Part shown: positions 9,384-60,686 of the stretch, piece by piece | Position numbering within the stretch: position 1 is the first letter of the stretch | How the letters are laid out: every line of letters starts with the position of its first letter | Origin: Naegleria gruberi | Taxonomy: Eukaryota | Assembly: GCA_000004985.1 (NCBI GenBank) | Contig: GG738863.1 | Length of the DNA stretch: 64,000 bases | Strand: one strand, 5' to 3' | Notes under the pieces: model-generated | The model's input: only the letters and a program-made list of their open reading frames with translations | What the model was told of the DNA's origin: nothing | Database searches by the model: none | Translations under genes and position numbers: made by a program

Positions 9384-11002
9384 TTAATTTCTGAGAGAAA
9401 TCTGAATCTTCATGTTTGAAGAAGGTTGATTCATAGGAAGAGCCTCGTTTACAATAGGGTCAACACTTTCATCATTCAATAATTTAAATCTATACTTGGT
9501 TGCCATACAGCTCAATATCATACAAGATTCCAAAAGGGAAAATTTCTTTCCGATACATTGACGATTACCCATAGAGAAAGGAACCCAAATGAGGTTTTGA
9601 ATAGAATCATCCTTGGTGGTTGGATTGACGAAACGATCTGGAATGAATTCGTTTGGTTTCTCCCAAATGTCTTCTCTCTTGTGAAGAGAATTAAAGAGTG
9701 TATACACTATAGTTCCTTTTGGAATTGTATGATTACCTAAAGTGGTGTCCTTAGAAGCTACTCTACCATTAACAAGAACAGGAGAATCTTTTCTCAGAGT
9801 TTCCATCAGTACACTATTGACATAGCTCAATTGTTCATAATCATCCATGGTAGGATCTCTTCCATTTAACACCTTATTGACTTCTGTACATAGGGTATCT
9901 TGAATATCAGGACGTTTGGAAAGTTCATATAAAACCCATTGTAATAATGTTGATGTTGTCTAAAAAATATTAGATGAATATTATAAAAACCTTGAAAACC
10001 TACGTCATGACCAGCAAAAGCCATTGCCACACTGTTTGATTTTAATTCAGAATCAGAAATGAGCTTTTCAGACATGTTTGCTTCAACCAAACGAGTCAAA
10101 ATGTCACTTGTTTCATCGAGTGTCATTTCTCCAGTCTTTAACTTTTCCCTTCTTTCTCCAATAATTTTATCTAAATGATCACTACAGTGATTGATAGCAT
10201 CAGTAATACCAACAGCCTTTTCAATCATTCTTCCAATAAATCCTGACTTGAAAATTCCCTTAATAATCATCGTTTTCATTGTAAAGGTAGCATGAAGTGC
10301 ATTCTTGAACTTTTTACCTTCATCATTGCCTGAAAAGACACCAAAATCAAGATTAAAACCAGCCTTTCCCAATACTTGGAATGTAATATCGGATAAATCT
10401 TGTTTAGTTAGCAAGCAAGTTCCATTTCCTCCCTCTTGAATCTTGGTATTCCATCTTTCGAATAATTGCTCTACAGATTCAACTGTAACCTTACACATGT
10501 ATCTGAGATTAGTTGGAGAAAATGCAGGACTACACACTTTAAAGTGTTTCTTCCACTCTTCTGTGTGAAGAACAGTCACAATATTCTCACCAAAAACCTT
10601 GGCTATGGTCAAATCAGTCTTATCAAACGAACTAGCCTTGGTAATGAAAATCTCTTTCAATAATTTAGGATCATTGGTGCAGATAACTGAATTGTTAGCA
10701 GTTACAATTCTCATCAGATTACAATTATTCTCCTTGAAAAACTTGACAGCATGTTTCTCAGTCTCAAAGAAGGAAGCAATATAAAAGTATGGAGCCAATA
10801 TTGGAATCTTGAAAGGAGCCTTCTCAAAGAATTGAATCACACCTGGAATGTCCTTCATCTTTGCATAGTTGGAATATAATTTGAACAAACTCTTGAGAAG
10901 ATAGGTAAGGAACATGACCAAAAATGTTGTACCAACGATCATAGTCAGTGAAATTTCATAAGAAAACTTGTCATTGTGTGGATCAACAACACCTTTGTCC
11001 AT
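9384..11002 (-). CDS. Cytochrome P450 monooxygenase, two exons (11002-10004 and 9959-9384; intron 9960-10003, 44 nt, GTAGGT…TTTAG), ~524 aa
   Basis: Heme-binding loop PFSMGNRQCIGKKF (FxxGxRxCxG) and ETLR are present. The I-helix AGHD|TTS is split by the intron. There is an N-terminal membrane anchor. Both exon lengths keep the reading frame. Confidence 0.85.
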
Positions 11003-11223
11003 TTTTTTATCTTTCTTTTTGTTTGGATATGAGTTATTTGCCGCCTTCTTGTTTATTTTGCATCCAACTCCTCCACTAGCGGTCTAAGAATTTCTTCACT
11101 ACTCCTTGCAGAGGCATTACCAGCCAATCGTAAGTTTTCTTGAACAATTCTCAATTTGGATAATGATTGATCGGAAGAAAAGAATCATCATAAAAAATAG
11201 AGAGTAACAAAATATCATCATCC

Positions 11224-12053
11224 ATGCCCAGTATTGATGGTTATGCATCGATGAGTAGTAATAGTGGACAACAATCCAATTGTTCTTCCTCCGTTGGATC
11301 TTCTCCATCATCGGGTGTGCCACAACAACAACAACAATATCATCATCAGCAACAACAACCACCATTAATGTGGTCACAACAACCCAATAACAATATCAAC
11401 AATAATCATCATTTAAATTATAATATAATCCCTAATAATAATAATATTCCTAATATAAATACAATTCCTAATATAATTCCTAACAATAATAATATGTTCT
11501 CTAATAATAATAATAATATCCAAACACCCATCATATTACCTCCAATATCTTTGTGTACACCAACAAAAACAACAACACCATCATCATCTGGTGTCACTGC
11601 TCAATTCCATCCCATAGCCTGTTCATCCTGTCGAAAGAACCATAAGCAGTGCGGTAAATATCATTTCAACATATATTTAAATTTTAAAATTCAATAATAT
11701 AATAATTTCAAATAATCAGATAGAACATTACCTAGTTGTGGTCGATGTATAGAAAAAAATCAAGCTTGTGAATATAAAACTCCCCTAAGAAAACGAAATC
11801 CTTTAGGAAATAATATTTCAAAAAAGAAGAAATCATCAGCCATTCCGAAGAATGTAGTATCTTACAAGGATTGGATTATTTTTCTGCAGAATTCTGATAA
11901 TTTAACGAGAGAGAATGTTGTCAAATTCCACAAAGTTTATCATATTATTGAATTTATTGATCCTATAGAGTTTGAGAAATATATTTACATTATGATGATG
12001 ATTCGACGAATGATAGTAATAATAGTGTGGATGAAGAGTCAAAAATGATGAGG
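11224..12053 (+). CDS. Zn2Cys6 (binuclear cluster) transcription factor, 5' part. Exon 1 is ~11224-11654, the intron (~66 nt) ~11655-11720, and exon 2 runs from ~11721 into the 50-N gap
   Basis: Exon 1 ends with CSSCRKNHKQC (C-x2-C-x6-C). Exon 2 begins …PSCGRCIEKNQAC (C-x2-C-x6-C), which completes the six-Cys motif. The N-terminus is Q/N-rich. A frame ambiguity near 11990-12050 (…EFEKY vs …HYDDDSTNDS…) and the gap prevent a complete model. Confidence 0.65.
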
Positions 12054-12103
12054 NNNNNNNNNNNNNNNNNNNNNNNNNNNNNNNNNNNNNNNNNNNNNNN
12101 NNN
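12054..12103. other. Assembly gap (50 N) inside or next to the Zn2Cys6 gene
   Basis: Run of n. Confidence 0.99.
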
Positions 12104-14246: not shown

Positions 14247-17200
14247 TTATGGCTTTATTTGATCCTTTGTAGCTTTCCTTGGTTCATTTCTTAATGCCAA
14301 ATCATAAAGTGGTTTGTCTTCCATTTGCTTCCAATCAAAGAGTAAATAGGCGAGAAATTCCAATAATTGTACATTGATTCTAATCATGGCAGATTCATCT
14401 TGTGGTGAAGGATTTTGTTGTTGGGGAATTAATTTCAATTTGGCAAGAATCTTATCTCCTAACTTTCTTTTAAGAATGAGTTTTCTTGTTTTCTCAGGTA
14501 CTTGAGCGATGAGTGGTGTGCAGATTGATGGTTTTTTCAATCTTCTTGAATGGAGACGTTTCATGGTTTGAGTCATGAGTTGATACTTGTGACAATTAAA
14601 AATAACACCATACTTGCTAGAAACAAAGTCATTATGACTCTCACTGATAAATGAAATATCTGTCAATAGGGCACCAAGGAATGGAACGAGCAATTCTGAT
14701 TCTTTTGCTATTGCTTCCTGTCTTAGGCCTTTCACTGTACATTTTTCTGATATGGTTGTTACCATTGAATGTAATTCTTTTCCTAAAAGTTCTTGACATC
14801 TGGCAAGAGTAAATTTGTTACTTCCAAGAGCTGAAGAATTTATGGTACTCGTACAAATCATGGTAGTACTAAAATCATTGACACTAAAACTCAATGCCTT
14901 AATTTGTTCAATCTTTTCCAATATCTGTGAACGCTTTTCTAGAGATGGCTCAGAAAGGCAGGAAACTAGGAGGTAATTACTCAAATTATTGAAAATATTG
15001 CAGAGCTTTTTAAGAACCATGAATCTAGTCTGTGAAGGGTCGTAGTTTTGTGGAGAGCTAGACTTGTATACAAGTGTTCTACTTTCAAATAAGCTGACAT
15101 GTCTGAACAAGTAGTCCATCAGTATAAATTGATGAAAGACAAAATCTTCTACTGTACATAAAGGAGGTGAATTTTCACTTTGAGAAATGAAAATACTTTT
15201 TGATTCCAATGTTGCTGAAACGAATGGGTTATTCTCTGGTGTTGGTAGTTGAGATGAGGTAGTATTACTTGGTTGAATGGAGCGAGAGAGAATTAGATCA
15301 TTCATCATGGAAGAGCACTCAAAATCCAATGAATCTTTGGTCATATCAATAAGCTTGAAGAGTTTGATACATTTTTTGTGAATGACATTATCACCATTTG
15401 AAAAACTACAATGACAAAGAGCATAGGAGGCAAAAGCTTCGACCAATTCAATCATATGGACCTCGCACAACGCACCATTGGTTCTATAAAAATCAAGAGT
15501 GGAATATCTTTTGAATCCAAAATCCTTAATCCAAATAAATAGCACATCCAATAAAACCTCAACTTCAAATAGGTATTGCTTGAAAAAATCATGCCTCACC
15601 TCTGGATTATTTTGAACTTGAGCACGAATGAATGACTTTTCAATATTTGGGAAGCATCTCATCCATAACTTTTCATGATTTTCAGTATCTAATGTAAAGA
15701 CTCTCTCAAATAATTTGTACAAGAGCATTTCTGGAGTGATTTTTGATGCTGCAATATTGGAAATCATTGATTCATAAACACCTTCTGGTGTGTTGATATC
15801 ATTGTAATTCTTTTGCTTGTTATCCTTTTGAAGATTCAGTGAAGCGTTGCACAATTTGCACAACTCATTATATACGAGTGGTTGCTGTGAGACCATGTAG
15901 AAGAATTGAAGATAGAGATTGCAATAAGTGTCGTGTCTTTCCTGAAGTGTACGCTTAAAAATCTCAGAAGGACTTTCAGTGATGGCAATGGCTGAGAAGA
16001 ATAGAGGCGACTCTGACAATATGTCATCAGCATTAGGGGAAGTTATCGATGAGGTATCTGGACTTGCATTTGGAGTCTTGGTGTTAAAGAGAGCCCCTAA
16101 CTTTTTCTTGGTCGAATTGGCCTTCTCTGATGAAGCCACACTACCACGAGGTGTCAGAGAATTGGATCGTTTCTTTCTCAAATCATTCATAATCTTCCAA
16201 TGATCTTGTGCCCAAATATTAATCTTGATTTGTGATTCCCATTCTTGTTTTTCTCTTTCATTCAATGCAAATAATTTTTCATCTTCAGAACTGTTGGCCA
16301 ATTGATTCATTAAATCCTGTCTTACAATTCTCGAATGCATAAGTGAACAAAATTTGTACAAAATTCCACTTGATGCCTCCTCACCTGAAAAATCTCTAGC
16401 AACAAAGTGATGAATGAGTGCTACCTGAGAGAGTGTATTATTAACTTGTAGAGAAGATGCCTTTTTCTGAGAGTTTGGTAAATTTACCATTATGGTTGAC
16501 CTTCTCTCCCTCGATGTCACATGAGCATTCACTTCATCACCTTCCACACCTATTATACAAGTATCATAATCTGCATCAATGAGAATGGTTGCCCATCTTT
16601 TACAGACCCATCTCAAACTACATCGTTGTTCACTTCTCGAAATGAAACTAAATATGAAAGGCATTAAATCGAATTTCTCCCACCATCCAATTGAGGAATG
16701 TTGATTAATGGCTGTCATCTTTTTAGCCTTTCCATTTGATGAACCATGTCCAATATTCGTAATTTGAAATGATTTCTCCCTGAAAAAGTTAATTACATTA
16801 TTCTTGGTTTGAGGAAGACCTTCAGAGAAGGAATTTGAAGAATTGGAATGATCGGAAGTGGTCGATCTTCCAGAGAAGGTTCTTGGAGTTTTAGAATCAG
16901 CACTGGTAGGTGTTGGTGTTGAGTAGCAAGCGTCCATTGTTGTTGTTGATGTTATTGAATTTGGTGAGAGTGCTCTATTTAAATTGGTTGAATTATTTGA
17001 AACTGTTGGTAGAAAAGTTGGAAGTGAGAGTGATGGTAAATCGTCTTCTGAAATTCTAAATTGTTCGGGAAGAGGTTGCAAGTAGTGTAATGATGTCGAG
17101 GTGGAGGACTGTTTAGCAGTGCTGGATGCCTTACCAACTTGAAGTAAATTCATAGAGGCTGCTTCTCTATACAATTGTTTTCCTTCTGTTGTCGTTGCTG

Positions 17201-17876
17201 TTTGATTGTTATTATTACTATTATTGCTATTGTTATTACTACCATTAGTATTATTAGATGGTGTGGGCTGATTATCCACAATGATATTTGGATTATTTAC
17301 TTGGTGATGATGATTGGATTCTTCTCCACTCGATAAAGAATGATGATGAGTGAATCGAGAGGGTGAATTTGCTTCATTATTATTAGTACTATTTGTTGTA
17401 CTCTTGGAACGTATTCGGGGAGAGGAAGCAGCTGAAGATGATGCTCTTCTTCTTCCATTTCCAGTGTTAGGTGATGAAGATGATGAATTTTCATGATAAC
17501 AAGTAGTACCATTAGTAGTATTAGTATTGTTATTATTCATATTAGATTGAAAAGCATGAACATCTCCAACATAGAATGTCGAATTAATCAATTCATCCGG
17601 ATTATTAGAACCACTCGATTCCAAATACGAAGAGGGTGAAGAATTCAATAGGAATTGAATCAGAGTTTGTGGTATCGATCCAACCCTTCTCAACTCTCCA
17701 TCATTATCATTGGATGCAACAACATTACCCGATGTTAGTGGTGATAGAGGTGAAGAGGGCAAAACAGGTGAGCCGACTGAAGAAGCATTTTCTCGTAAGT
17801 TTGTTGGCGGGAGGAATGTAGTGTTGCTTTGTGGACTGTTTGCTAGAGAATTCGTTCTTCTCTTGCTGGTAGACAT
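14247..17876 (-). CDS. Ras guanine-nucleotide exchange factor (CDC25-homology RasGEF domain) with an internal F-box-like motif and a long S/N-rich N-terminal region (~1209 aa), single exon
   Basis: C-terminal …LEKIEQIKALSFSVNDFSTTMICTSTINSSALG… and VPFLGALLTDISFISESH match RasGEF catalytic-domain motifs (NFNSLMAI…ALNSS; IPFLGxYLTDLxFI). F-box-like LMPFIFSFIS…CSLRWVCKRWATIL. The likely ATG is at 17876; the track start at 17915 is a TTG. Confidence 0.75.
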   Translation of the reverse strand: MSTSKRRTNSLANSPQSNTTFLPPTNLRENASSVGSPVLPSSPLSPLTSGNVVASNDNDGELRRVGSIPQTLIQFLLNSSPSSYLESSGSNNPDELINSTFYVGDVHAFQSNMNNNNTNTTNGTTCYHENSSSSSPNTGNGRRRASSSAASSPRIRSKSTTNSTNNNEANSPSRFTHHHSLSSGEESNHHHQVNNPNIIVDNQPTPSNNTNGSNNNSNNSNNNNQTATTTEGKQLYREAASMNLLQVGKASSTAKQSSTSTSLHYLQPLPEQFRISEDDLPSLSLPTFLPTVSNNSTNLNRALSPNSITSTTTMDACYSTPTPTSADSKTPRTFSGRSTTSDHSNSSNSFSEGLPQTKNNVINFFREKSFQITNIGHGSSNGKAKKMTAINQHSSIGWWEKFDLMPFIFSFISRSEQRCSLRWVCKRWATILIDADYDTCIIGVEGDEVNAHVTSRERRSTIMVNLPNSQKKASSLQVNNTLSQVALIHHFVARDFSGEEASSGILYKFCSLMHSRIVRQDLMNQLANSSEDEKLFALNEREKQEWESQIKINIWAQDHWKIMNDLRKKRSNSLTPRGSVASSEKANSTKKKLGALFNTKTPNASPDTSSITSPNADDILSESPLFFSAIAITESPSEIFKRTLQERHDTYCNLYLQFFYMVSQQPLVYNELCKLCNASLNLQKDNKQKNYNDINTPEGVYESMISNIAASKITPEMLLYKLFERVFTLDTENHEKLWMRCFPNIEKSFIRAQVQNNPEVRHDFFKQYLFEVEVLLDVLFIWIKDFGFKRYSTLDFYRTNGALCEVHMIELVEAFASYALCHCSFSNGDNVIHKKCIKLFKLIDMTKDSLDFECSSMMNDLILSRSIQPSNTTSSQLPTPENNPFVSATLESKSIFISQSENSPPLCTVEDFVFHQFILMDYLFRHVSLFESRTLVYKSSSPQNYDPSQTRFMVLKKLCNIFNNLSNYLLVSCLSEPSLEKRSQILEKIEQIKALSFSVNDFSTTMICTSTINSSALGSNKFTLARCQELLGKELHSMVTTISEKCTVKGLRQEAIAKESELLVPFLGALLTDISFISESHNDFVSSKYGVIFNCHKYQLMTQTMKRLHSRRLKKPSICTPLIAQVPEKTRKLILKRKLGDKILAKLKLIPQQQNPSPQDESAMIRINVQLLEFLAYLLFDWKQMEDKPLYDLALRNEPRKATKDQIKP

Positions 17877-18231: not shown

Positions 18232-19115
18232 TTACTTTTCATAGACCCATTGGGCGTTGGCAAGTTCATAATTGGCAACTTCTTCAGGCTTGAACCAGAG
18301 GTTGATTTCATCTTTAGCAGTTTCAACAGAATCAGAACCATGGACACTATTTCTACCGACTGTTGTTGTTATAAATCAAGATGATGAATATGGATGAAAA
18401 TATATAATGATGGAGCAGAATAATATAGGTGATCCAATATTATTAAGAGCCGCAATGGTATCATATTGTATCATAGTAGAAATAATAATAGAATTAGAAA
18501 AACACAAAATGACAAGAAATATTACTTACCATCAACAGAGAGATCACCACGAATAGTTCCTGGTGGAGCAACAAGTGGATTGGTGGCACCAATCATGACA
18601 CGAGAATAGGAAATAACACCCTTACCCTCTATAGTTGAATAATATGATGAAGAAACAAATTCATACAAATCAACAAACAACAAATTGTGAGCATCGAAAA
18701 AGTGTTAATAACAAGATCGTTAGAACAAACAAAATATAATAAGAAAATACTAACCAGCAACAATACAGACGAGTGGAAGACCAGTCATGTAATCAACCAA
18801 ACCAGCAAAGAATGGTCTACCCTTCAAGTCATGGTAGTGAGCTTCAATTTGTTGACGAGTTGGAGTAACCATCTTCAAACCAACAATCTTGTAACCCTTC
18901 TTTTCGAGTCTGCCGAGAATTTCAGAAATGTTACCACGTTGAATAGCGTCATACTTGATAGCCATGAAGGTTCTTTCATGTCTAGTACCAGCAACACCTT
19001 GTGGTGGGAGACCTTCAGCAACCAATTGAGCCTTGTTTTGATTCTTGCCGTAGAGGGTAGCAGATACAAGGATAGCAGCACTAATAACACCGACCTTTCC
19101 AATTCTTGACAACAT
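18232..19115 (-). CDS. Nucleoside diphosphate kinase, three exons (19115-18755, 18628-18530, 18359-18232; introns 18754-18629 and 18529-18360), ~195 aa, with a hydrophobic N-terminal extension
   Basis: Exon 1: [14 protein letters not shown]…[14 protein letters not shown]. Exon 2: [33 protein letters not shown]. Exon 3: [23 protein letters not shown]…* (NDK active-site region). Donors GTTAGT/GTAAGT, acceptors AG, and the phases close the frame. Confidence 0.85.
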
Positions 19116-20612: not shown

Positions 20613-23600
20613 TTACTTTGAAAAGTAAGGATCTTTGAGGATATCCTTGGCACTTGGTCTTGATGATGAATCTTTGGTGAGCATTTTCAAACAGATGGAA
20701 ATGAGTTCTTCTGAATAATTAGAAGTTTGTTTCATCTTGTCGTGGAGAATTTCACAAACTTGTTTTTCATCCTTTGAGAGGTACATGTGACTGATGGCTG
20801 TTGTGTTATCCTTTGTCATGAGTTGGTAGATTGTTACTCCCAAACTCCAAATATCAGTATTGGAATTATAACTAGCTCCCAATCCAAGTTCAGGACTCAT
20901 GTCTTTAGAAGAATGGTTAAATATCTTACAATGAAATTGAAAAAACTTACAAAGTGGAGTTCCTGCATATGATTGCATAGCTGATGCATGATTGTCCTTT
21001 GCAAGACCAAAATCAGCAAGAATAGTATGAATACTTGTATCATCAATACTCTTAATGAAAATATTGGACAATTTAACATCACGATGGATGGCCTTCAAAT
21101 TGGAGTGAACAAAATCCAAAGCACTACACATTTGATACACTATTTGTTTGACAATGACTTCACCACAGAAAGGAGTTTCAGGTTTGATGAATGCAGATAA
21201 ATCTCCCTTCTCATAAAATTCCATATCCATGCAGAGAATTTCCTGCTTGTCCACAAATAAATCATTCACTTTCAGAATATTTGGATGACTGATATTCATC
21301 AATTGCATTCCTTCTTTCATGATTGCGTTCAACTCTCCAAAGCTTTTAAATTTAATAATTTTCAGAGCTTTGGTCTTGTTTGTTTTGGTGTCAAATGCTT
21401 TTTTTGAAATATTAGAAACTAATCAAATAATAATACAAACCTTTGAAGACACTTCCAAATGCTCCTTGTCCAATCTTGGTTAATTCTTTGTATCTAGAGA
21501 GAGGATCAAATGTTGCTTCACTATTTGTAACAGAAGACATGCTACTGCTGAGAGGTCTGAAAAAGCTGTCATCTGTTGGGAAATCAGAAATTTGATCAAA
21601 AGTGCTGGCATTAGCATCCTTCATTTCAAAGTTTTGACGAGATTTCACAACAGAATTGGTTACAGTTGATCCTTGTTTCTTGAGTTTCATATAAGCAATC
21701 ACAAATGCAACAATTACAACTATCAAAATTGTAATGAACAGCACAACTAACACAGGTACAAGAACTGCAATAAGAACGATTTGTCCATTATTGCTATCCA
21801 CTCTTCCACCACTAGTACTTGTTGAATTCAAAGTTACTGGAGTTGAAATTAAACATTGAGAACCACTCCATGTAGAAGAACATTGACAAGTATCTGGAGC
21901 AATACAGCTTCCTTGAAGTGGGCCACCACATGAACTCGATCCAACAGCTCCATAACAAATTGGTGTACATGTTGTAATGTTCAAAGAATATCCACTATCA
22001 CAATATGGTGTTAGTTTGTAAATATTTCTCCTTTCAGAAACGTAGAGCTCTCCATTTTCTCCATAAATAATACGAGAGGGATCAGCAGAAAGGACTATTG
22101 TTGTTGATAAATTAAAAAATAAAAGAGGAATAACCACTTACATGGCAGTGTAATGTTTGTGAAAGTACCACCAGTTTGGAAACGAGAAACTCCCAAACTT
22201 CCTCCCACAAAAATAGTTCCATCAGAAGCAATGGCTAAACCAGTTTTTTTAACAGTTCCTATTATTTCATTATGTAAGATTAATCTATTATTTGGAAATA
22301 CTAACCGAGGTAATTAATGGAAGTTGAGGTTATAGTTTTGAGATAGTAACTGGTATCGTCCAAGAAATAAATTCGCTTATCAAGAGGTGAAACTGTCATG
22401 GCATTGGCGAAAACTGGTGAATCAAGAGGGACTGATGGAGATGTTTTACTAACACTTTGTGAGCCTCCAGCAACTGTGGTCACCATTCTCGTCGAAAATG
22501 AAATCTTTCTAATCTTTGCAGTGGCCAAATCAAAATAGTACAAATATTCGTTATCAACTGCTATTCTATAACAATTCATAGTAGTATTGAGTGCAGGAAT
22601 ATTTTCTGCAAAGTTGGAACTACTGGACGATCCGGCAAATATTGAAATGGATTTGTTTGAGGGATCAATCATACGGATACTTTGAAAAGAAGAAGAATAA
22701 ATAATGCCATTCTTAATTACAAAGTCTGAAGGAATAAGAGCAATTCGTTCGTAGGAATCAGGATTTTCGGTGGCAATACTATAAGATCCAATTACTCTTT
22801 CTATCTTTCCATCTGTTTTGATTTTGTAAATAATGTTAAAAACTGTAAAATATAATTCAGAATTCCAAAAGTACATGGTATTTCCAAAGGTATCTACTTT
22901 CATCTTGGTGGCTAATGTTTTATCTTGATTAACAATATAATTACCAACATTTCTCAGTGCTGAAAAAGCTGAATCTCCAGCTTTGAAAGTATTAATTTCA
23001 TATTCAAAAGTATTAGCAACAAATATATCAGTTCCATTATCTGAATATCCAATTGCTTGTGGATTTGCGAAATCATTGGCAGAATTAATTAGATTATCTG
23101 ATAGATCTTTTGTTGTGTCATATTGAAAAACGTTAGTACCAAAGGTTACCAGTAAATAGTTATTAAAAGTGGCCACTGCAGTAATTTTGTTGGTTAAAGT
23201 TAAATAAGTACTAGTTGAGTTATCAGCTAATGTGAGCATGATTCTTTTGTTTTCGCTATCTGCAGTGAAAACTCTACCATCGAATGATACTGAAACTGAG
23301 TGAGGATGCCAAAGTTGCTGATTATTTTTACCTGGTCGATTACCAACTCCAATAAGAGTCTCAATAAAACCATTTGAATTGATTCTTCTCATTTTGTTAT
23401 TAAAAGTATCTGCAATATAGACAATATCTGTCATTGTTTGATTATCGTACCAAACACTCACACCAAGAGGGTTGTTCAATTTTGCACTTGTTGCCAAAAT
23501 ATTATCTCCATTATATCCAGGACTTCCTGTTCCAGCAATTGTTGTAATAATATTGGTAATTGGATCAATTCGTCTAATTCTATGATTGTATGTATCAGCA

Positions 23601-24991
23601 ATGTAAATTGCTTTGGTTCCACTTGAAAAAGCAACAGCAGTTGGGTTATTGAATTGAGTATTTGAATCTAAAACAAGGCCATCTCCTGCAAATCCTGCTT
23701 CTCCTTTACCGAATGAATATACTTGTGAATTCTTAATTTGTAATATTGAGTGAGTCAAACTTTGTGTTAAATAGAGTACATTCTGAACTTTTGTTACTCC
23801 ATAAGTTTTGGTCAATCTAATACTGAAAGGATCAGAGTTAAAAGATGGTTCAAAAGGAGATCCACAAAATCTTGAAATTGTACCAGTTTGAGAAAGCAAA
23901 CTAATTCTATCAGCCCTACTCTCGAGAATGTACCACTCTTCAGTGAATGGATTTCTCATAATTGAACGCGGTTCATATAATTGAGCTTGAGTTGCTTGAA
24001 TACTAATATTATCACTGGTGCCACCACCTGCAATTGTAGTTACCATTCCACTCAATGTGTCATATTTTCTAATTCTATTGTTACCAGTATCCGCAATGTA
24101 CAACTCAGTTTCCAATTTGTTCATCCAGAGTTTAGTTGGATTATTCAAAGTGGTTGAAAGTCCACTTGAATCAGAATCAAACCCAATATTTACAGTACCA
24201 ACTAGAGTTACAATAGTTCCGTTTGTCAAAATCTTTCGTATTCTGTTATTTCCGGAATCTGAAACAAAAATTTCACCACTCGATTGTGAAACATAGATTC
24301 CTTGAGGATAACTAAAAGAAGCATTCAAAGCAAGAATTCCATCTCCATAGAATGTATTGTTAGTATTTACATTTCCTGCTATTGTAGTAATAACATTAGT
24401 ATTGGTATCAATCTTTCGAATAACATGATTTCCGCTATCACACACATAAAGACACTCATCAAATGCTGAATAGAAAAGACCTGTAGGATTATTCAATAGA
24501 GCACTCTTTGCCAATGAATTATCTCCTGAGAAACCTGCCGTATCTGATCCAGCCACAAAAATCGAAGGGGAAAGAAAATCGATATTAGTGGCGTAAACAC
24601 CATTTCCAAAAGTATAGTAAATAAAATAGTCATTACCTGCAATTCCTTTGTATTCATAGTTGCCATTATCATTTTGGAAGATGGATATCTTTCCATCTGT
24701 CAATGACACCTTTCGAACAGCACGGCGATAATGGTCAGTGAAATAAAGACTATTCTTCTGCGATGAAAAGAACATATCGTACGGATACGCCAGAGTGGCA
24801 TCAATAGCCTCACCTCCATTTCCAAATTCATCAGAATATCCAGCAAAATTCGAAACTGTATATCTAGCAAACTTTGTTTCCGCACCACCAACCACTTCAA
24901 CAACAACAATGGCAACACACGACAATAACAGTACCAATAAAAGAACTGCACTACGTTGGCCAAAGAAAACCGCCCGGCAGTTGTTGTCCAT
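20613..24991 (-). CDS. Receptor-like protein kinase with an NHL-repeat (six-bladed beta-propeller type) ectodomain, an EGF-like Cys module, one TM and a cytoplasmic Ser/Thr-Tyr kinase domain. Four exons: 24991-22306, 22258-22142, 22094-21441, 21397-20613. Introns 22305-22259, 22141-22095, 21440-21398 (47, 47, 43 nt). ~1413 aa
   Basis: Signal peptide MDNNCRAVFFGQRSAVLLLVLLLSCVAIVVV. Repeated …ADTGNNRIRKY…, …SDSGNNRIRKI…, …ADTYNHRIRRI… NHL motifs. CTPICYGAVGSSSCGGPLQGSCIAPDTCQC. TM LIAVLVPVLVVLFITILIVVIV. Kinase GQGAFGSV|…K, HRDVKLSNIF, DFGLA, and HPNIL after the intron. Junction phases were checked by hand. Confidence 0.8.
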
Positions 24992-25501
24992 TTTTTTTGT
25001 TTTTCAGATAATTGTGGAATTTTTTAGGAGGGAACTGGAAGTTGGGATTCTCTGCCTTTTTCAGAAGATATTCTTTGTGTGTTTTGATTGGTTGATAGGG
25101 CCTGTTTGTTACAAACTAACATCAAGATATTTTAACTAGTTCTAGTTCAGTTTCGAATAAATGGTGGGAAACTGTAGTTGGGTTCATAAGAAACAGTAGA
25201 TGCTTTAGAGGTTAGATAATGGTTTTGAGTTTGATGGTTTGGTGGAGCATAAAGAACAGTTAGAACTGTTCCAAAACCTAAACTTGGTTTTGACCTTTCG
25301 AACAAATTGTTATTGATATTGGAAACAAATCGAATAATGGAAAGATTGAGAAGTGTAAATAATTGGAAATTGTTAGCAGATGGAATTAGAAGAGTTTGGT
25401 CTTTGTGGTGGTATCTATCATTGTTCATTCCATTTTTAGAAAAATCAAAGATTAGAATAAAATTTTGTAATGATTAATATTAGTATTCTTTAAATTAAAA
25501 A

Positions 25502-44001: not shown

Positions 44002-44109
44002 TATTAACTTTTGAATATTAAACATCATCATTTTCATAATCAAGTAAAGTAAATATTAAATAAAATTAAATTTTTGAAAATAATAAAAAATTCCGTGATC
44101 CGAAAAAAA

Positions 44110-46250: not shown

Positions 46251-46277
46251 ATAAATCAGTTTACAAAAAATAATTTA

Positions 46278-49038
46278 TTACAATTTCATAAAGTGTTTAC
46301 CTGTGACTGGACAAACGTTCATGTTTTTAGCACAAATATAATGTGTAACGACACCATTAGGATAACAAACAAAGGCACTCATACCTAATTTCTTATTGCA
46401 CACTGCACAAGTTCTATCTGGTTTAACCTTTACAACTCTCTTTCTTTCCTTAATGACTTCTTCGTGAACTTGGAGATTCTCAGATCGATTGATATTTTTC
46501 ATAATTTGAGCACGTCTCTTTTGTTCCGTATGGCACCTCAGAGTTGCTTCAAAGTACTTCATCAAATCAGATATTGGAACATTTTCTGGGAGCAATTTAA
46601 TTGCCTTGATCAAGTCAATCTTTGAAAAGTGACGTTCCAATAATCCAATAGCATCTTCAAAGAATAAATTGTTTTCTGTACTGGCACTTTGCTTTAAAAT
46701 CATATTGAGAAGAATGATAAATATTTCCCTACTTTCTTCACTTCCATCTGGATTATAGTGTTGCTCGCAATATTTCTCAGCCTTATCCATACTTTCCAAT
46801 TTGGTAACATAGATAGTCAGAGCTTGGGAGTGTCTATTAATCTTACTCAACAAAATAGCTCTCTCTTCGTACAGGGAATCGAATGGGAATCTCGAAAGCA
46901 TCTTTTCAGAGTGGTAAAAAGTAGAGTGGGTCAAAAAGTCGTTCATTCTACGCTTGACATCCTTAACTGGTTGAAGGAGTCCAGGAATACTATCTTCCTC
47001 ATAGTTGGATGCTGATGTTGAGTATTTGGTCACATATTCCAAATAGTACAATAAAAGTTGATTGTGAAGGTTTGGATCCACAGATTTTTCAACCTTAATC
47101 AAGTGTTCCAAATAGGCAATCTTCATGGCCAGAGCATGATCAAACAAATCCAAGTGAGATAAAATTTCATTTACACTAATTGGACAATTTGGTACTTGGA
47201 AAATCTTTAAACCACGAAGTGGCTCAGCACTGAGTACCCACTTTGAGAATTCTAAAATGTACTGTTGTCCTTCTCCAACCTGTTGTAATTCCTTCAAATA
47301 GTTAATAGTTGGCATGACACCAATCAAGTCGGTGTAAATAGATGTTGCTGATGACTTGTCTCCCAATAATTTCAACAATTCAAGAGCTCTATCGTGCAAC
47401 CCTTTGGTCTTGTAGAAGAGAACCAACTCTCTAAACTTTTGATGGGAGTGGAGGGTCTTTTGACTGTCCATAATGTTACAATGATTTGGTTGGGTGATAA
47501 AATCTTCAACGTGAGGGTCATTAGTGTATAAAAGTGCCTTCAATAATGCTGTATCAACTGCCTCAGCTTCATCTAGAGCTTGCTCATTCAAATCCTTTTC
47601 TGTTGTTCTTCTGTGAAGCAAGTATTGAATCAGGGCTTGAAGGGCCTTATTTCTTTGTTCAATATCCTTTAAAAAGTGATCAATCTTTCGTTGCTCTTCA
47701 GAAGTGTAAGGGAGGGAGAATTTAAATGAAGATTTTGGTGGTAACAAATCAGGGAAGAGTGAAATAATCATACGTGGATCATCTTTAGTCTTATCAAAAT
47801 GTTCCATTGCCTTGTCAAATTCACCTTTGGCAAACAAGTGAAAACCAAATTGTGTGTGAATGGAACTAACTCTCCAATCTTCAATCTTATATCTGGTATT
47901 CTCTACAGTATTACAGAGATGGAGAGCCAATTCAAATTGTTGATTGGATAAGAGTTCTCCAGCTTGCAAATCAAATTGTTTCATTACCATAACATAGATG
48001 GAACTCTTTGAAGCGAGGAAAATTCTATTTTCTGGATCAATGGTGTCATCTCTGTCGAGTTCATTTCTTACCTTGAATCCAACACCCATACCATGATCCA
48101 TATTTTCTGGATGATCCAAATCAATGAAATTCTGTTGACTTGTTGTAATGATATCCTTGAGTGGAAGACTCTGAATGAAAGTATCCTTTTTCACAGTGGT
48201 ACTCAAAATTCTAACCTCAACAAAAACAGAGAGTGGTGCAATGAGGTATGGTTTCAAATAGCCAATCATGTTTGGAGCTTCACTCCATCCAATACCATGT
48301 GATCGTGAAGGTTTACCAGAAAAGTTGATGGTCACACCAATTCCATTCAAAACCACAATAGTTTCATTGGGAAGTGATAATCCAAGAGTATTTTGTTGTG
48401 AAACACCTGTATCGAAAAGTTTTTGTGGCATGGCAGATGGCTTTAATACATCAATTAATGAATATTCCTTTTTGAAACCAACACAGAGCTTGTCGCCACT
48501 CCAATTCAAAGATTTGGCAGCATCTGGCAGAACCAATTCCTGTTGATATTTAAATTTAGATTCCTTACTACCATATTCAAAGATTGAAATCTTTTTCTTT
48601 GATGCAACTGCCATTGTAAATTCACCATTGTGCTTTTTCAGAGCAAAAAACATGCATCCCTTCAATTGATTTTGCTATCAATTTAATTACACTCAAAATA
48701 TTCCAAATTATTCTTACCTTTAAATTCTTGAGTGTATCAATTTCACTCAACATTCCGAGAGTATATACTTTAATAAATCCATCTGTCAAACAAATCAACA
48801 TTCCCAATTCTGGAACTGAGCACATTTGAGTGATTGGCTTTTTGCTAAATTGTTTCTTTTGACTGTCCAGAGCACAAGTAAACTTTTCCTTGTTTGCCTT
48901 TTTATCATATCGAATATTGTAAAGGGATAAGGTACCATCAGTGGTGGCCACAAAAAGAGTATTGCACCACACACACAATGATTCTACCTTTCCCAATCCA
49001 TCCAATAATTGGAAATATTCAAAGGCTGTATGTCCCAT
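46278..49038 (-). CDS. Vam6/Vps39/TRAP1-like tethering-complex subunit (CNH domain + helical repeats + C-terminal zinc-binding tail). Two exons: 49038-48718 and 48674-46278. Intron 48717-48675 (43 nt; alternative acceptor at 48660), ~905 aa
   Basis: N-terminal MGHTAFEYFQLLDGLGKVESLCVWCNTLFVATTDGTLSLY (CNH-like). C-terminal CAVCNKKLGMSAFVCYPNGVVTHYICAKN. Donor GTAAGA; the 43-nt choice matches the local intron size. Confidence 0.7.
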
Positions 49039-49929
49039 TGTTTTAATAAATTATTCTTCTTCCGAATATAAAATCCAACAAATTAATTTCCTATAACTAT
49101 TGTGTCTCTGATCTTGTTCAACAATTCCGTTCTTTCGATCTATCGTATTTGATGCTGATGATAATATTTTCAGAGTTTGATTATTATTATCGTGTGATGA
49201 CCAAGAAGAACGAGAAAAGATTTTTTTATAAAATTAAAATTGAATTTTATTGTTTTAAAAAAAACTAATAAAAGATTTTATTTGTTCCAGCCAACAGAAA
49301 GCTGTTTTTTACCTTCTTCTCATTACTGTTCGTGTCGATTTGATAGCGATTTGATGGATTGTATTTTAATTGATTGTGCCTCTCTTAAAGCGGAGGTAAC
49401 TACTTTCTTCTACAAACTTGTATGTGCGGAGAAGGAAATCCTCGTGCTTCCTCTCTTCATATCTTCATAATAAAAAGTTTATTCTTCAAAATATTTAATA
49501 GATAAGAGATTATCAAAAAATTTGCCAACCAACCACCAGATTCTGTTTGATTAGCAAAATCCGCTTTGCAATTGTTTATTCACTGCGTTTTAAATACGTT
49601 TTCTTCATCATCAGAGAGAGTGGTTTTTAAAAAGTTGTGTGTTTGGTTTAATCAATAGTACAATTCACTAGAACAATAACAACAAATCTTCATCATTAAC
49701 TTCTCTCTAGGTTTTACTTACAATATCAAGTAATATATTAAAGCGCACATCTTATATCTAATAAGGAGAACAACAAGTCTACTACTATTAGAATAATATT
49801 ATTTAAATTATTTACACACCACCATCATAATACAAATTGGTAACAATACGGAAGGATAACAATTTAATTATCATCAACTACCATCATTAATTTAAACAAC
49901 ATCACATCAAAATATAAAAGCGAATAACA

Positions 49930-51009
49930 ATGCTGTCAGATTCTAATTCCTTCATGATGGAAGATCAACAAATGCCTCCTTCTTCGTCATCTTCTTCTGC
50001 TTCTTCTTCCCCTGCTCCTTCCTCTCCACTTTCACCTCATCATACAGCAACTTTTGAAACAAACATGCTTGATGAATATGGAAGCAGTATCAATCACCCT
50101 TCTAAGCCACTTAACACAACAAATACAGCAACAACAACACTAAATAATGCATCCAACAATAATATAGAACACATGAGATCAGCTGGCAATGATGATTCTT
50201 TACCACCTATTGCTTCCATACCACCAAACAATTCAACTTCTCGTGTTGTTAATGTTGGGCCAATTATGAATGCAATTCAAGCTTATAGTGGTAATAATGG
50301 TAATAGTACACTTGTTGATAATGTAAATGTCAGAATATCCTCCGCCTCATCTTCATGTTCAACCATTTCAGATCATTCTATGAATAATACAATGATTAAT
50401 GGACAAGCACCAAAACCACTTAATGATTTTGAAAATGTATTTGCTAGTTTCAAGAAGAGAAATAGAGAACAATACGAAAATAATAATCAATCCTCGTCAT
50501 CATCTGATCCAGTTTCATATATTAGAGATTTGGAAGATAAAATTGATTTTATGGCACAATTAGTCACTATTCAATCTGCCAAAATGAGAAAGATGGAAAT
50601 GAGATTGAAAAAATTGGAAAACTTACTTCCTCAATCAGGGGATGAATTTGTAAATTCAGGCAATCTTCATCGTATGCCACATAGTGATGAGTTATCATCA
50701 ATTAGTGATGATATACCAACATTTTCAGCACCAAAGAAGGAAAAGGGTAATAGACAACCTAATGCCTATAATATTTTCATGAAGGGAGAAATTCAACGTA
50801 TTCGAACAACTCACACAGAATTAACACAAAAACAGGCATTTAAACTTGCTGCCAATAATTGGACTTTGAAGAAATCTGAAATCCTTGGAGCTTCAAATGG
50901 TTCACAGAAAAAACCAGACGACAGAACTAGCACAGTAAGCACACCTAGTGATACTACCATGGCAGATTCACTTTCTGAAACACCACTCAATCAACTTGAC
51001 GAAAAGTAA
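49930..51009 (+). CDS. HMG-box-like / YABBY-like DNA-binding domain protein (359 aa) with a coiled-coil and an S/N-rich N-terminus
   Basis: PKKEKGNRQPNAYNIFMKGEIQRIRTTHTELTQKQAFKLAANNW aligns by eye with the YABBY consensus PSAYNRFIKEEIQRIKA.NPDISHREAFS.AAKNW and with HMG boxes. Coiled-coil IRDLEDKIDFMAQLVTIQSAKMRKMEMRLKKLENLL. Confidence 0.55.
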   Translation: MLSDSNSFMMEDQQMPPSSSSSSASSSPAPSSPLSPHHTATFETNMLDEYGSSINHPSKPLNTTNTATTTLNNASNNNIEHMRSAGNDDSLPPIASIPPNNSTSRVVNVGPIMNAIQAYSGNNGNSTLVDNVNVRISSASSSCSTISDHSMNNTMINGQAPKPLNDFENVFASFKKRNREQYENNNQSSSSSDPVSYIRDLEDKIDFMAQLVTIQSAKMRKMEMRLKKLENLLPQSGDEFVNSGNLHRMPHSDELSSISDDIPTFSAPKKEKGNRQPNAYNIFMKGEIQRIRTTHTELTQKQAFKLAANNWTLKKSEILGASNGSQKKPDDRTSTVSTPSDTTMADSLSETPLNQLDEK

Positions 51010-51261
51010 AGATTTAATTTTTCAAATATGATGACCCATTCATCAGATTTACTATTATCAAGAGTTGACCAACCTGGCCATTCAAAATTTCTATTTCTTC
51101 TAGGAAAGGATGTGGATTGCCTCTTGGATTTGATGAGAAAAAGGTCTTTTTAGATTTTTCAAAGAAAAAGAATCTTCACAACTCATGTTTCCTAATACCA
51201 ACAACATTCAATAATTTATTATCATTTTGCAAAACAGAAATATACTTTAACAGATAATAAT

Positions 51262-52783
51262 ATGGCATTCGGATCGTGCGNNNNNNNNNNNNNNNNNNNN
51301 NNNNNNNNNNNNNNNNNNNNNNNNNNNNNNNNNNNNNNNNNNNNNNNNNNNNNNNNNNNNNNNNNNNNNNNNNNNNNNNNNNNNNNNNNNNNNNNNNNNN
51401 NNNNNNNNNNNNNNNNNNNNNNNNNNNNNNNNNNNNNNNNNNNNNNNNNNNNNNNNNNNNNNNNNNNNNNNNNNNNNNNNNNNNNNNNNNNNNNNNNNNN
51501 NNNNNNNNNNNNNNNNNNNNNNNNNNNNNNNNNNNNNNNNNNNNNNNNNNNNNNNNNNNNNNNNNNNNNNNNNNNNNNNNNNNNNNNNNNNNNNNNNNNN
51601 NNNNNNNNNNNNNNNNNNNNNNNNNNNNNNNNNNNNNNNNNNNNNNNNNNNNNNNNNNNNNNNNNNNNNNNNNNNNNNNNNNNNNNNNNNNNNNNNNNNN
51701 NNNNNNNNNNNNNNNNNNNNNNNNNNNNNNNNNNNNNNNNNNNNNNNNNNNNNNNNNNNNNNNNNNNNNNNNNNNNNNNNNNNNNNNNNNNNNNNNNNNN
51801 NNNNNNNNNNNNNNNNNNNNNNNNNNNNNNNNNNNNNNNNNNNNNNNNNNNNNNNNNNNNNNNNNNNNNNNNNNNNNNNNNNNNNNNNNNNNNNNNNNNN
51901 NNNNNNNNNNNNNNNNNNNNNNNNNNNNNNNNNNNNNNNNNNNNNNNNNNNNNNNNNNNNNNNNNNNNNNNNNNNNNNNNNNNNNNNNNNNNNNNNNNNN
52001 NNNNNNNNNNNNNNNNNNNNNNNNNNNNNNNNNNNNNNNNNNNNNNNNNNNNNNNNNNNNNNNNNNNNNNNNNNNNNNNNNNNNNNNNNNNNNNNNNATT
52101 TATTGTGGAATGATTATTTGAATTCTGTTCAACAATTTCAATTGGAACCCAATAATACTCATCATTATCATCCATTGAAAACATTCAAGGCGAGAGTGAA
52201 GAATTTCTCTGGAGTTTTACTTTCCTCTCCAACAATTTCAATGAGTTTCATATATAATCAGGTATTTTGGATTACACCTTATGGAAAGGGTGATTCGTCC
52301 AATAATTTTGAATATTATAGGGAGAGAATTGAGAGAGCTATTTCAAATTTCAATTTGCATGTGTTAAAGTTTTTGGTTGTGCCTGTTTTACGGATATTCC
52401 CTTCACTTCCATTGTATCCACCATTTGGAATACCGTGTGCTCAACCAAAATGCAGAGAACGTTTCCAAAATGATGCTCTACTTTACAAGGGCTACTGGAA
52501 GAGTTCAACATCTATTTCCATTTTGGAAGAGATGAGGAGTGTGAAAATTTTACTGGCCTCCTTTAATCCTGACCAATCTCAATCCACACAGAACGTACCC
52601 ACACTCATTGTATACGGAGAATCTGATAATTTCTTCTCGTGGGACGAAACTAAACATCTCTTCTCCAAACATTTTCAAAATATAACATGGAAATCATATC
52701 CCAATCTTAAACACGACGTTTTCCATGAGGATGTTAAAGAACCAGTGTGCAGAGATTTATACAACCTTGTTGTAAGAAACTGA
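51262..52783 (+). CDS. Alpha/beta-hydrolase (MGLL/lysophospholipase-like) gene interrupted by an 817-N gap; only the C-terminal ~225 aa (52098-52783) and a possible start (51262 MAFGSC) are visible
   Basis: C-terminal PTLIVYGESDNFFSWDETKHLF…NLKHDVFHE (Asp/His region of hydrolase_4). The frame across the gap is unknown. Confidence 0.45.
51281..52097. other. Assembly gap (817 N)
   Basis: Run of n. Confidence 0.99.
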
Positions 52784-57450: not shown

Positions 57451-59158
57451 ATGATTAAAACACTTTCATTCATACTACTAGTGTTATTATCACTCTATTC
57501 TATTATATCTTTCATTAGAGCTCAAGAAAGATTCATTAATGTCAAGTATTCAATTAAAACTTTGATTGGAACTGGTGCTGGAATATTTAACTTGGATGGG
57601 TTGACTGGATTGGCTACTAATATTAATTCACCTATTGGCGTGTTTTATGAAGAGAGTAGTGGTGATTTGAATTTCTCACATACATGTAAGTTTCATACTT
57701 TCGAATAATAATTTTCATGTTATTCGAAACAACAGTAAACAATACAGTAAGAGTTTTGAGAAACTCATCNNNNNNNNNNNNNNNNNNNNNNNNNNNNNNN
57801 NNNNNNNNNNNNNNNNNNNNNNNNNNNNNNNNNNNNNNNNNNNNNNNNNNNNNNNNNNNNNNNNNNNNNNNNNNNNNNNNNNNNNNNNNNNNNNNNNNNN
57901 NNNNNNNNNNNNNNNNNNNNNNNNNNNNNNNNNNNNNNNNNNNNNNNNNNNNNNNNNNNNNNNNNNNNNNNNNNNNNNNNNNNNNNNNNNNNNNNNNNNN
58001 NNNNNNNNNNNNNNNNNNNNNNNNNNNNNNNNNNNNNNNNNNNNNNNNNNNNNNNNNNNNNNNNNNNNNNNNNNNNNNNNNNNNNNNNNNNNNNNNNNNN
58101 NNNNNNNNNNNNNNNNNNNNNNNNNNNNNNNNNNNNNNNNNNNNNNNNNNNNNNNNNNNNNNNNNNNNNNNNNNNNNNNNNNNNNNNNNNNNNNNNNNNN
58201 NNNNNNNNNNNNNNNNNNNNNNNNNNNNNNNNNNNNNNNNNNNNNNNNNNNNNNNNNNNNNNNNNNNNNNNNNNNNNNNNNNNNNNNNNNNNNNNNNNNN
58301 NNNNNNNNNNNNNNNNNNNNNNNNNNNNNNNNNNNNNNNNNNNNNNNNNNNNNNNNNNNNNNNNATTCGAAAGTTTGTGGAACTAATGGAAAATGTCTGA
58401 CAATTGACAAGTGTGTTTGTAAAGATGGATTTTATGGTCTTGATTGTTCACTTCCTATTTGTTTGAAAGCAGAAAATGGAAAGTGTGCTAATGATACAAC
58501 AGGTGTAACTGTAGAAAATATTGAAACAAGTCAATTGTCAAACAAATCAATTTCTCTTAGTTCAGGAAATTTGACAGAAAGTTCAGTAGTTTCAGTTTCC
58601 TTTCCTTCTGATTTTTCTCATTATATTTCCAATCAAACAACCTTCTCATCAGTTTCTCTACTCACAGCGGTTTCTACAAGCGGAAACAATTTGACAAACT
58701 CAAATTCTGCTTTCTCCATAGTTTCGAATATAATCACAATTTCACTTGCCTTAACAAATGGAAAAAAGATTCCAGTTTCTAATTTGGAAAATCCTATACA
58801 AATCTCATTCCAAAAACCAACAAGTTATTCTGGAAATTTGACATGCATGTACTTGGACGAATTGACCAATGAATGGAAATCAGATGGTGTGAAAACTGTT
58901 ATTGAACCATTAACAGTCAATTGTCTGACTTCTCATTTAACTTCCTTCTCGGTAATTGATATTAATCTCAGGAAGGAAATTGGAAAACCAAAAGAATCAC
59001 CGAGTGTCAGTAATCAAACAATTTCACAAAGTCAACTCTCTCAAGAAGCTATCATTGCAATCTCAGTATCAATTGCTGGAAGCTTCATTGTTTGTTGTGT
59101 TGTTGCAATAATCCTGTCAGCTGTTATCTGCTTAATAAGAAGAAAATCGAAGAAGTAA
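57451..59158 (+). CDS. Single-pass membrane protein with a signal peptide, NHL-type repeats, an EGF-like module, an S/T-rich stalk, a GPS (GAIN-type autoproteolysis) motif and a TM + RRKSKK tail. Exon 1 57451-57685, intron 57686-57735 (50 nt), exon 2 from 57736, interrupted by a 595-N gap, resuming 58365-59158
   Basis: [24 protein letters not shown]. After the intron, LNNTVRVLRNSS is an NHL motif like the GNNRIRKI of the kinase ectodomain. CGTNGKCLTIDKCVCKDGFYGLDCSLPIC is EGF-like. GNLTCMYLDELTNEWKSDGVKTV…TVNCLTSHLTSFSVI matches the GPS consensus (W…G…C.C.HLT.F.V). TM IIAISVSIAGSFIVCCVVAIILSAVICLI. Confidence 0.65.
57770..58364. other. Assembly gap (595 N) inside the NHL-EGF-GPS gene
   Basis: Run of n. 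Confidence 0.99.
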
Positions 59159-59210
59159 AATAAACAATGATAAAGACCTTAACTTTCTAATTAAACTTAT
59201 TGAATTTAAT

Positions 59211-60686
59211 TTAAAAGTATAAATTCAATAAGGAATATTCTGAAGAAACTCCAATACGTAATGGGAAACCATAATGACCTGTTCCTCTGTGAGCATACAA
59301 TCTCAGTGATCCTCTTCCATAGAGACCTTGATCTGGTGGATGGACTTTGAAAATCTTCTTACTTCCAAATAATCTCAATGCCTTGAAGAGTACCTTTACA
59401 AATGTTAAACGGCGGAATCTAGTTCCAATATGCCCACCATGTAAATGGCCTGCAAAAACAATGTCAGTATCATCCTTCATGCTCATAGAGGAGAGAATAG
59501 ATGGATTGTGAATGAGGAAGAGCTTTGGAATATCTTGAGAAAGCTTTGGGAATTTTTTAGAGAGCTCTTGAATGTGTCTGGTTGATGAATCATGTCCAGC
59601 GAATGAGAATTGAGATCCCACAACTTGAACAAGTGATTTTTCTCCTTTAATTTTTGAAAGTCTTTCCACTTCCACAATAGCTTGGTCATCTTCCAATAAA
59701 ATAATATCATTTTGTCGGTAAGCTTCTCTTACCCTTTCCAAAACTTCATAATCGTGACTATTTAAAAAGAATGATATTATAATTATAAATAGTTCATAAA
59801 CCTACTTTCCTAGACAAGCAATTGTTCTACCTTTCAATTGTTTGAGAGGTGATAATGCTTCACTGAGTGAATGATCATCGTCGTGTGTATCCATTGTTTC
59901 CATATCACCAGTAATCAAAACTAAATCAATATTATCTCTATTGTCGACAATATTTTGACAGAGAGACTTGAGTTTTTCCTTACTCATACAAGTTCCCAAG
60001 TGTGGATCAGTAATTTGGAAAATTCTCAAAACTCTGGATTCATCTGTGTGAAGAGGTTTATCATGATGGTCAATTTCAATAACTGTATCTTCTTGGGAAG
60101 ATTTATCAATAGTTTCCTTTCTCAAATCAATATGAACGAGTTCCTTTCCAAACTTTGGTCCCACCACTGAAATGTACAATGCATGAAGTGAAATAGCTAG
60201 TACGAGTCCATTAAATCCAGCATCTAACAATGGCAAATTTACATTATTTACAAAGAGTGGCAATACCCATCTCGTTGCAATCGAGTACGGTATTACTGAC
60301 ATACTACCAATGAAAGCAAGAGCCAAATACCAATAACCAGGGAATGCAACACTTGCCAAATACCACCAAGGTTTCAATTTCTTCCAATGAGTCAACACAA
60401 ACAAGTGCAAAAACAAGGCAGAATTGAAATACATGTGAATTGGCACTGAAAAGAATGGAAAATCTCCAAACAAATTGTAATATCCATTTGCCATCAGTGA
60501 ATGTATTCCTCCAAATATCAAATAAAAGAATGAAAATCTCTTTTGTTTCATCAAGTATCTGGAATACAAAAACAAGGCTGCTGTTCCCAAAACTGATTGA
60601 ATACCAAACACCCAAGAACCATGCTCAGCAATCCATCCCAAAATTGATGAGGATGAAGAAGTAGAAAGAAGGTTTGTTTCATCCAT
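59211..60686 (-). CDS. TMPPE-like transmembrane metallophosphoesterase (calcineurin-like phosphoesterase domain behind an N-terminal multi-TM region). Two exons: 60686-59806 and 59757-59211. Intron 59805-59758 (48 nt). ~483 aa
   Basis: IFQITDPHLG and ITGDM motifs. The intron sits inside the GNH[DE] motif codon: …ACLG N|HDYEV… is restored only after splicing. C-terminal FAGHLHGGH and YAHRGTGHYGFP are present. Confidence 0.75.

Follow-up and report, generated by a model that had tools for sequence, protein, structure and literature searches.

Clustering of intron lengths at 43-50 nt in a 64-kb window of the Naegleria gruberi genome

Peaks of minimal-length introns are familiar in compact eukaryotes. 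The typical short intron measures ~47 nucleotides (nt) in Caenorhabditis elegans, ~45-55 nt in Schizosaccharomyces pombe and Cryptococcus, and ~60 nt in Drosophila, and ultra-short introns are present in Stentor (15 nt) and in the Bigelowiella nucleomorph (18-21 nt). Intron definition under a length constraint is usually inferred from such length peaks. Short introns are found in many species, including those of ~25 nt in Paramecium (PMC5014332), and the term "minimal introns" is used in PMC2856156. The published mean intron length is 203 nt in Naegleria gruberi, which has 1.7 exons per gene, and 126-144 nt in N. fowleri (PMC8296547). No statement of a modal intron length for Naegleria was found in the literature searched, which gave mean lengths only. 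Here, we analyzed the introns of a 64,000-nt stretch of the N. gruberi NEG-M genome (the window), which is part of a 467,654-bp scaffold and has a G+C content of ~33%. An earlier note on this DNA had described highly uniform mini-introns of 43-50 nt. The phenomenon as such is already known, and the genome has been public, with most of its gene models, since 2010; although a modal length for Naegleria is unstated, the observation is not of a new kind. The public NEG-M annotation (GenBank EFC45xxx and RefSeq XP_0026780xx-81xx) is reportedly that of Fritz-Laylin et al. 2010.

Intron lengths and evidence for the junctions

Eleven of the 15 introns in the window are 43-50 nt long (mean 46.8, standard deviation 2.4) and none is shorter; the average over all 15 is 99 nt. 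The junctions were set by evidence independent of intron length. The clustering of lengths goes beyond chance: all eight tabulated junctions fall within 43-50 nt, for which P is ~3e-4 under random choice among the listed frame-compatible GT..AG segments of ~25-75 nt at these eight junctions. Within this window, the lengths form a sharp mode next to the lower limit, as in minimal-intron peaks. These are very probably ordinary U2-type GT-AG spliceosomal introns, most of them at or just above the shortest length that the N. gruberi spliceosome handles. The 14 introns of the earlier note were all located with the same lengths, and its span runs from the first base of the P450 intron to the last base of the TMPPE intron; a 48-nt kinase intron (20903-20950, minus strand) had been overlooked. 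After re-derivation, it was still the case that only the NDK and NCS introns lie outside 43-50 nt. The introns are listed below, with a slash marking the junction in the spliced protein here and throughout.

9960-10003, minus strand: P450 intron, 44 nt, phase 0, GTAGGT..TAG
22259-22305, minus strand: NHL-kinase intron 1, 47 nt, phase 1, GTTAGT..TAG, exact match to public protein P0028
22095-22141, minus strand: NHL-kinase intron 2, 47 nt, phase 1, GTAAGT..TAG, exact match to P0028
21398-21440, minus strand: NHL-kinase intron 3, 43 nt, phase 1, GTTTGT..AAG, exact match to P0028
20903-20950, minus strand: NHL-kinase intron 4, 48 nt, phase 1, GTAAGT..AAG, a multiple of three (3n) with no in-frame stop, exact match to P0028
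27908-27956, plus strand: DUSP intron, 49 nt, phase 1, GTAAAT..CAG, joining two open reading frames (ORFs) in different frames
32689-32736, minus strand: lipase-like intron 1, 48 nt, phase 1, GTAAGT..AAG, in-frame stop inside
31980-32027, minus strand: lipase-like intron 2, 48 nt, phase 2, GTAAGT..TAG, in-frame stop inside
48675-48717, minus strand: Vps39 intron, 43 nt, phase 0, GTAAGA..TAG
57686-57735, plus strand: NHL-GPS intron, 50 nt, phase 1, GTAAGT..CAG, next exon only 34 nt before an assembly gap
59758-59805, minus strand: TMPPE (phosphohydrolase) intron, 48 nt, phase 2, GTAGGT..TAG, in-frame stop inside
18629-18754, minus strand: NDK intron 1, 126 nt, phase 1, junction IVA/EGKG
18360-18529, minus strand: NDK intron 2, 170 nt, phase 1, junction SVD/VGRN
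41509-41868, minus strand: NCS (EF-hand) intron 1, 360 nt, phase 1
41021-41337, minus strand: NCS (EF-hand) intron 2, 317 nt, phase 1

Ten of the 15 junctions, those of NHL-kinase, Vps39, TMPPE, NDK, and NCS, give GenBank/RefSeq proteins exactly. The five-exon NHL-kinase model equals the public N. gruberi protein P0028 across all 1397 residues. The spliced proteins of Vps39 (905 residues), TMPPE (475 residues), and NCS (192 residues) are identical to XP_002678158.1, XP_002678159.1, and XP_002678157.1, respectively, and the spliced NDK model, counted from Met51, is identical to XP_002678151.1. In addition, splicing of TMPPE rebuilds the metallophosphoesterase motif LG/NHD, and the Pfam Metallophos match is obtained in the spliced form only. 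The N. fowleri Vps39 protein aligns as residues 1-108 and 109-910 on the two flanks of the 43-nt intron. NHL-kinase intron 4 was hidden in the ORF map because it is 3n and stop-free; its 16 codons are absent from P0028, and its excision rebuilds the activation-loop motif GTPLYMSPE.

The other five junctions are backed by restored catalytic or structural motifs, Pfam continuity, or ortholog architecture. In the P450 gene, the Pfam p450 profile halts at position 276 at the donor and restarts at 277 at the acceptor; the spliced protein gives a single continuous match of 251 bits and regains the I-helix motif AGHD/TTS. The first lipase-like junction restores HGLNEH/SGRY and is crossed by a continuous Abhydrolase_1 match. 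The second intron is the sole frame-compatible GT..AG segment of 25-75 nt at its site, and the Hydrolase_4 match (residues 254-422, profile 69-237) spans the junction gaplessly. No exact counterpart of the P450 and lipase-like spliced models was found among public proteins. The lipase-like exon 2 (32028-32688, minus strand) carries a nucleophile elbow GQGIG, not GxSxG, and a long low-complexity insert inside the hydrolase fold; with this elbow, the catalytic serine may be absent. For DUSP, the N. fowleri ortholog P0180 combines the NRDDFLRI motif of exon 1 with the LTRTKSSPN motif of exon 2 in one protein, and its gene has a phase-1 intron of 162 nt at the equivalent place. The DUSP donor is firm and the acceptor is ambiguous, giving 49, 61, or 64 nt. 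The unspliced NHL-GPS frame meets a stop after seven codons, and the spliced sequence ..SGDLNFSHT/LNNTVRVL fits the NHL pattern ..ADT.NHRIRK of the paralogs; this fit is its only support, and the NHL-GPS intron is the least secure of the eleven mini-introns.

Splice signals, composition, and recognition of the introns

All 15 introns begin with GT and end with AG. The donors are GTAAGT (six), GTAGGT, GTTAGT, and GTATGT (two each), and GTTTGT, GTAAAT, and GTAAGA (one each), with G at +5 in 14 of the 15 and T at +6 in 14. By donor sequence alone, they are GTRAGT-like, as expected for complementarity to the 5' end of the U1 small nuclear RNA. The donor GT[A/T]AG/TGT of the earlier note is corrected here to the consensus GTWWGT. 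The acceptors are TAG (seven), CAG (five), and AAG (three). The weak pyrimidine tract of the earlier note is not borne out: the pyrimidine fraction of the last 15 nt is 0.33-0.73, and there is no real tract. None of the 15 donors resembles the RTATCC of U12-type introns (donor /[AG]TATCCTT, branch site TCCTTAAC).

The A+T content of the mini-introns is 74-84%; the confirmed exons (20.5 kb) have 65%, and an A+T content of 77% is reached in just 2.9% of their 46-nt windows. A weight matrix combining donor and acceptor gave 22 matches with a score of ≥14 in the real sequence versus 17 in shuffled sequence; the extra matches break the frames of exactly matched proteins, sit on their non-coding strand, or lie outside the confirmed genes. 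As matches at moderate thresholds are about equally frequent in shuffled sequence, the splice motifs do not suffice to define the introns, and this failure of the matrix fits recognition by spacing and context. Phase 1 is found in 11 of the 15 introns, a post-hoc excess with a binomial P of ~0.0007-0.002. In samples of other species, phase 1 accounts for five of nine introns in Willaertia and five of seven in N. fowleri.

The reading that some of the frame breaks are draft sequencing or assembly indels or pseudogene lesions, and the GT..AG segments bridges picked by eye or by a predictor, draws on real defects of this sequence. The window is draft assembly because it contains N runs (four of 50-1322 bases, plus one single N), a break at 45844 in the UfSP gene is exactly such an indel, and the public DUSP model seems to hold a spurious 111-nt intron. 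However, the mini-introns share the narrow length, the high A+T content, and the GTWWGT-like donor described above, and their excision restores conserved motifs to the residue. Three of them have in-frame stops without a frameshift, which an indel does not explain. A 99%-identical strain lacks any difference inside the Vps39 intron, and relatives have introns at the same sites. Indels and lesions are therefore a highly improbable account of the mini-introns.

Here, we propose how ordinary minimal introns of this kind may be recognized. As in short-intron eukaryotes generally, the splice motifs carry too little information alone, and recognition would therefore pair the two ends of each intron with one another (intron definition). 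The floor of ~43 nt may be the spacing that the U1 and U2 small nuclear ribonucleoproteins need among donor, branch point, and acceptor. Unconstrained introns would shrink to this floor by deletion bias or selection for compactness, and the long NDK and NCS introns may be kept long for other reasons or may simply be unshrunk.

Compared with known systems, the introns of the window resemble the minimal introns of compact eukaryotes in their sharp near-limit peak, GT-AG ends, A+T richness relative to exons, and weak 3' signals, and in their long flanking exons, which favor splice-site pairing across the intron. They differ from other minimal-intron systems in the species-specific peak at 43-50 nt, in having A at -3 of the acceptor in three of 15 and no pyrimidine tract, and in the low intron density of ~0.5 per gene in the window. 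Very narrow lengths and weak motifs are shared with the ultra-short introns of ciliates and nucleomorphs, but the introns of Naegleria have about double their length and fall within the conventional spliceosome range. A hallmark of Paramecium is a depletion of 3n stop-free introns, for which only 11 introns can be compared here. Four of these are 3n in length and one of the four is stop-free, a small sample with regard to any such deficit, which would reflect selection through nonsense-mediated decay.

NHL-kinase intron 4, the 3n stop-free one, bears on another possibility, namely that the short class consists of functionally distinct introns (for example, tuned for regulated retention or mRNA export) and is not a passive minimal-length peak. 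Its retention would add 16 residues within the kinase activation loop and turn the Tyr of GTPLYMSPE into Cys...Asp, giving an altered and not a truncated protein, and this intron is a candidate for functional intron retention judging from its sequence. A role of minimal introns in promoting mRNA export has also been suggested for vertebrates (PMC2856156). In contrast, 10 of the 11 mini-introns lead to a premature stop if retained, intron sequence is unconserved between close relatives, and the orthologous DUSP intron of N. fowleri measures 162 nt, so that length is not conserved per site. A distinct functional class is thus quite improbable, and the passive peak is preferred. Further 3n stop-free introns were sought in the unmatched genes of the window, and nothing convincing was found.

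Introns of related species

Introns in three loci of other species were reconstructed from gene ranges and product lengths. The introns of the Willaertia magna locus are 44, 37, 40, 46, 47, 40, 36, 46, and 50 nt. A further W. magna gene has an intron total of 238 nt with no unique split, the top-ranked solution being five introns of 44-53 nt; for another gene the best solution is 67, 53, and 63 nt, and W. magna Vps39 is intron-less. The sampled introns are 79, 142, 187, 488, 161, 172, and 162 nt in N. fowleri and 56, 82, 305, and 391 nt in N. lovaniensis, in which two more genes have totals of 188 and 207 nt with no unique split. The short class is thus common to N. gruberi and Willaertia; the N. 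fowleri and N. lovaniensis sample gives no evidence of it.

Site-by-site comparison gave several patterns. At the Vps39 site, a related species represented by two metagenome contigs (74% DNA identity) has a 46-nt intron in the same codon with unrelated sequence. The position of NCS intron 1 is shared with N. fowleri (488 nt) and N. lovaniensis (305 nt), and the orthologs of NCS intron 2 are 161 and 391 nt, respectively; in each of the three Naegleria species, both NCS introns are long. The NCS ortholog of a relative is encoded by an intron-less Logan contig of 1077 nt, which is the only such case bearing on transcript splicing and an indirect one. Metagenome scans for relatives of the lipase-like and TMPPE genes gave no matches. 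The RasGEF (14250-17876, minus strand) and YABBY-like (49930-51006, plus strand) genes are uninterrupted in N. gruberi. In the N. fowleri locus (L007), RasGEF has a 172-nt intron (16882-17053) and the YABBY-like gene a 187-nt intron (about 6877-7036); in the N. lovaniensis locus (L009), RasGEF has an 82-nt intron and the YABBY-like gene an intron total of 207 nt. By this presence-absence pattern, introns were gained or lost within the genus Naegleria.

These comparisons suggest, as a tentative possibility on the doubtful side, that N. gruberi and Willaertia hold a discrete class of introns of no more than ~50 nt, whereas introns at identical or neighboring sites are several-fold longer in N. 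fowleri and N. lovaniensis, as for DUSP (49 versus 162 nt).

Gene models of the window and implications

Pfam scans of the long ORFs gave eukaryotic signaling and trafficking genes, such as P450, RasGEF, kinase, RGS, DUSP, DUF4116, and Vps39. The NHL-repeat ORF at 22304-25003 (minus strand) matches "serine/threonine protein kinase [Naegleria gruberi]" at 100% identity, and 18 other proteins derived from the window are letter-for-letter public N. gruberi NEG-M entries from the same 467,654-bp contig. The UniProt accessions of the matched genes climb with window position from D2VCD9 to D2VCG7, and this series indicates 29 annotated genes at 6.4-63.3 kb. Nineteen of the 29 were reproduced residue for residue, and 14 of those 19 are single-exon.

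The reading of the earlier note as real introns forming a strikingly narrow short class in the window stands, but its claim that standard gene finders mis-split these genes was largely not borne out. At least six of the 11 mini-introns are exact in the public JGI/GenBank models, as are all four long introns, and the public annotation gets most mini-introns right; the DUSP model looks mis-built.

The view of the short class as a minimal-intron peak of N. gruberi has to be weighed against several observations. The evidence for each junction is either inference at the protein level or a public gene model, and these models are themselves partly predictions. A branch-point motif search of the 15 introns, suggested in the earlier note, gave no significant motif: YTNAY-type motifs are no commoner than in shuffled introns, and YTCAY, present in seven of the 15 (P=0.006, uncorrected for the 15 patterns tried), lies at an inconsistent distance from the acceptor. 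The sampled N. fowleri and N. lovaniensis loci have no intron of 43-50 nt (none below 56 nt in two 21-kb loci), and the class is therefore not genus-wide. Of the 29 genes, ten are unmatched to public models, three of them owing to assembly gaps, and might hide more and possibly longer introns. Finally, the published mean of 203 nt, compared with 99 nt for the 15 introns here, shows that the short class is only part of the picture; with such a mean, the length distribution of N. gruberi must have a long tail of many long introns in addition to the short peak. A "genome signature," as the earlier note called it, is not demonstrable from one 64-kb window.

The last two observations also favor the idea that the narrow peak reflects ascertainment, in which short introns between long ORFs are visible, those that are long, in untranslated regions, or next to small exons are missed, and the true distribution is broader; the overlooked kinase intron points the same way. 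That intron, however, is 48 nt and also inside the peak, and the four long introns were picked up by the same eye. The 19 exactly reproduced genes, mostly single-exon, leave little space for hidden long introns, and the mean of 203 nt is compatible with a peak plus a long tail. Ascertainment is thus an unlikely explanation of the peak, and minimal introns remain the preferred reading.

Two public gene models call for comment. The 215-residue protein P0179 (28037-28795, plus strand), presumably the public N. gruberi DUSP model, is 100% identical to the window but begins at an internal Met, without exon 1 and the 49-nt intron. It also lacks a stretch of 37 residues (CTKNVENKFERNH...), removed by an apparently spurious 111-nt intron and conserved in the orthologs of both N. 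fowleri and N. lovaniensis. On the sequence evidence, this model looks mis-predicted on both counts, the start site and the 37-residue splice. Upstream of the public start, the NDK frame stays open for another 50 codons, as far as an ATG at 19115 (18966-19115, minus strand), and the added peptide resembles a targeting sequence; the public 145-residue NDK model may be N-terminally truncated.

Several other intron candidates were rejected. In the UfSP (Peptidase_C78) gene at 44053-46247 (plus strand), the break near 45844 is a 1-nt indel and not an intron, with an A missing in the GCAAAG run. A contig of the 99%-identical strain (ENA ERZ929261, L001) has one more A after 45844 and an uninterrupted UfSP ORF of 714 residues. 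An assembly error or a frameshift specific to the strain is the probable cause of the break. Introns linking 28962-29939 with 29974-31422 were ruled out, these being two separate annotated single-exon genes, and candidates upstream of RGS, RasGEF, DTW, and P450 were rejected. Mechanical pairing of open frames via GT..AG gave thousands of candidates and was uninformative without homology. The metagenome strain (L001/L004, ENA ERZ929261, run ERR1078381) has 99.05% identity to NEG-M over 8.5 kb (window 42742-51279), with 62 substitutions and 19 indel positions. Positions 1-6000 of the window are strongly A+T-rich (G+C 19-30%) and contain none of the 19 matched public genes; the first 4 kb is markedly strand-asymmetric, with GC skew reaching -0.46 and AT skew +0.29, and includes a gap of 1322 bases.

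For practical annotation of N. gruberi, the minimum intron length setting must be below 43 nt. Introns that are 3n and stop-free can hide in seemingly intact ORFs, and draft indels can mimic introns. The contrast in intron length within the genus could merit a genome-wide look. If it were true genome-wide, the set point of the minimal intron would have moved within one genus, and Naegleria would be a compact system for studying what fixes minimal intron length; the phase-1 excess might belong to the same story.

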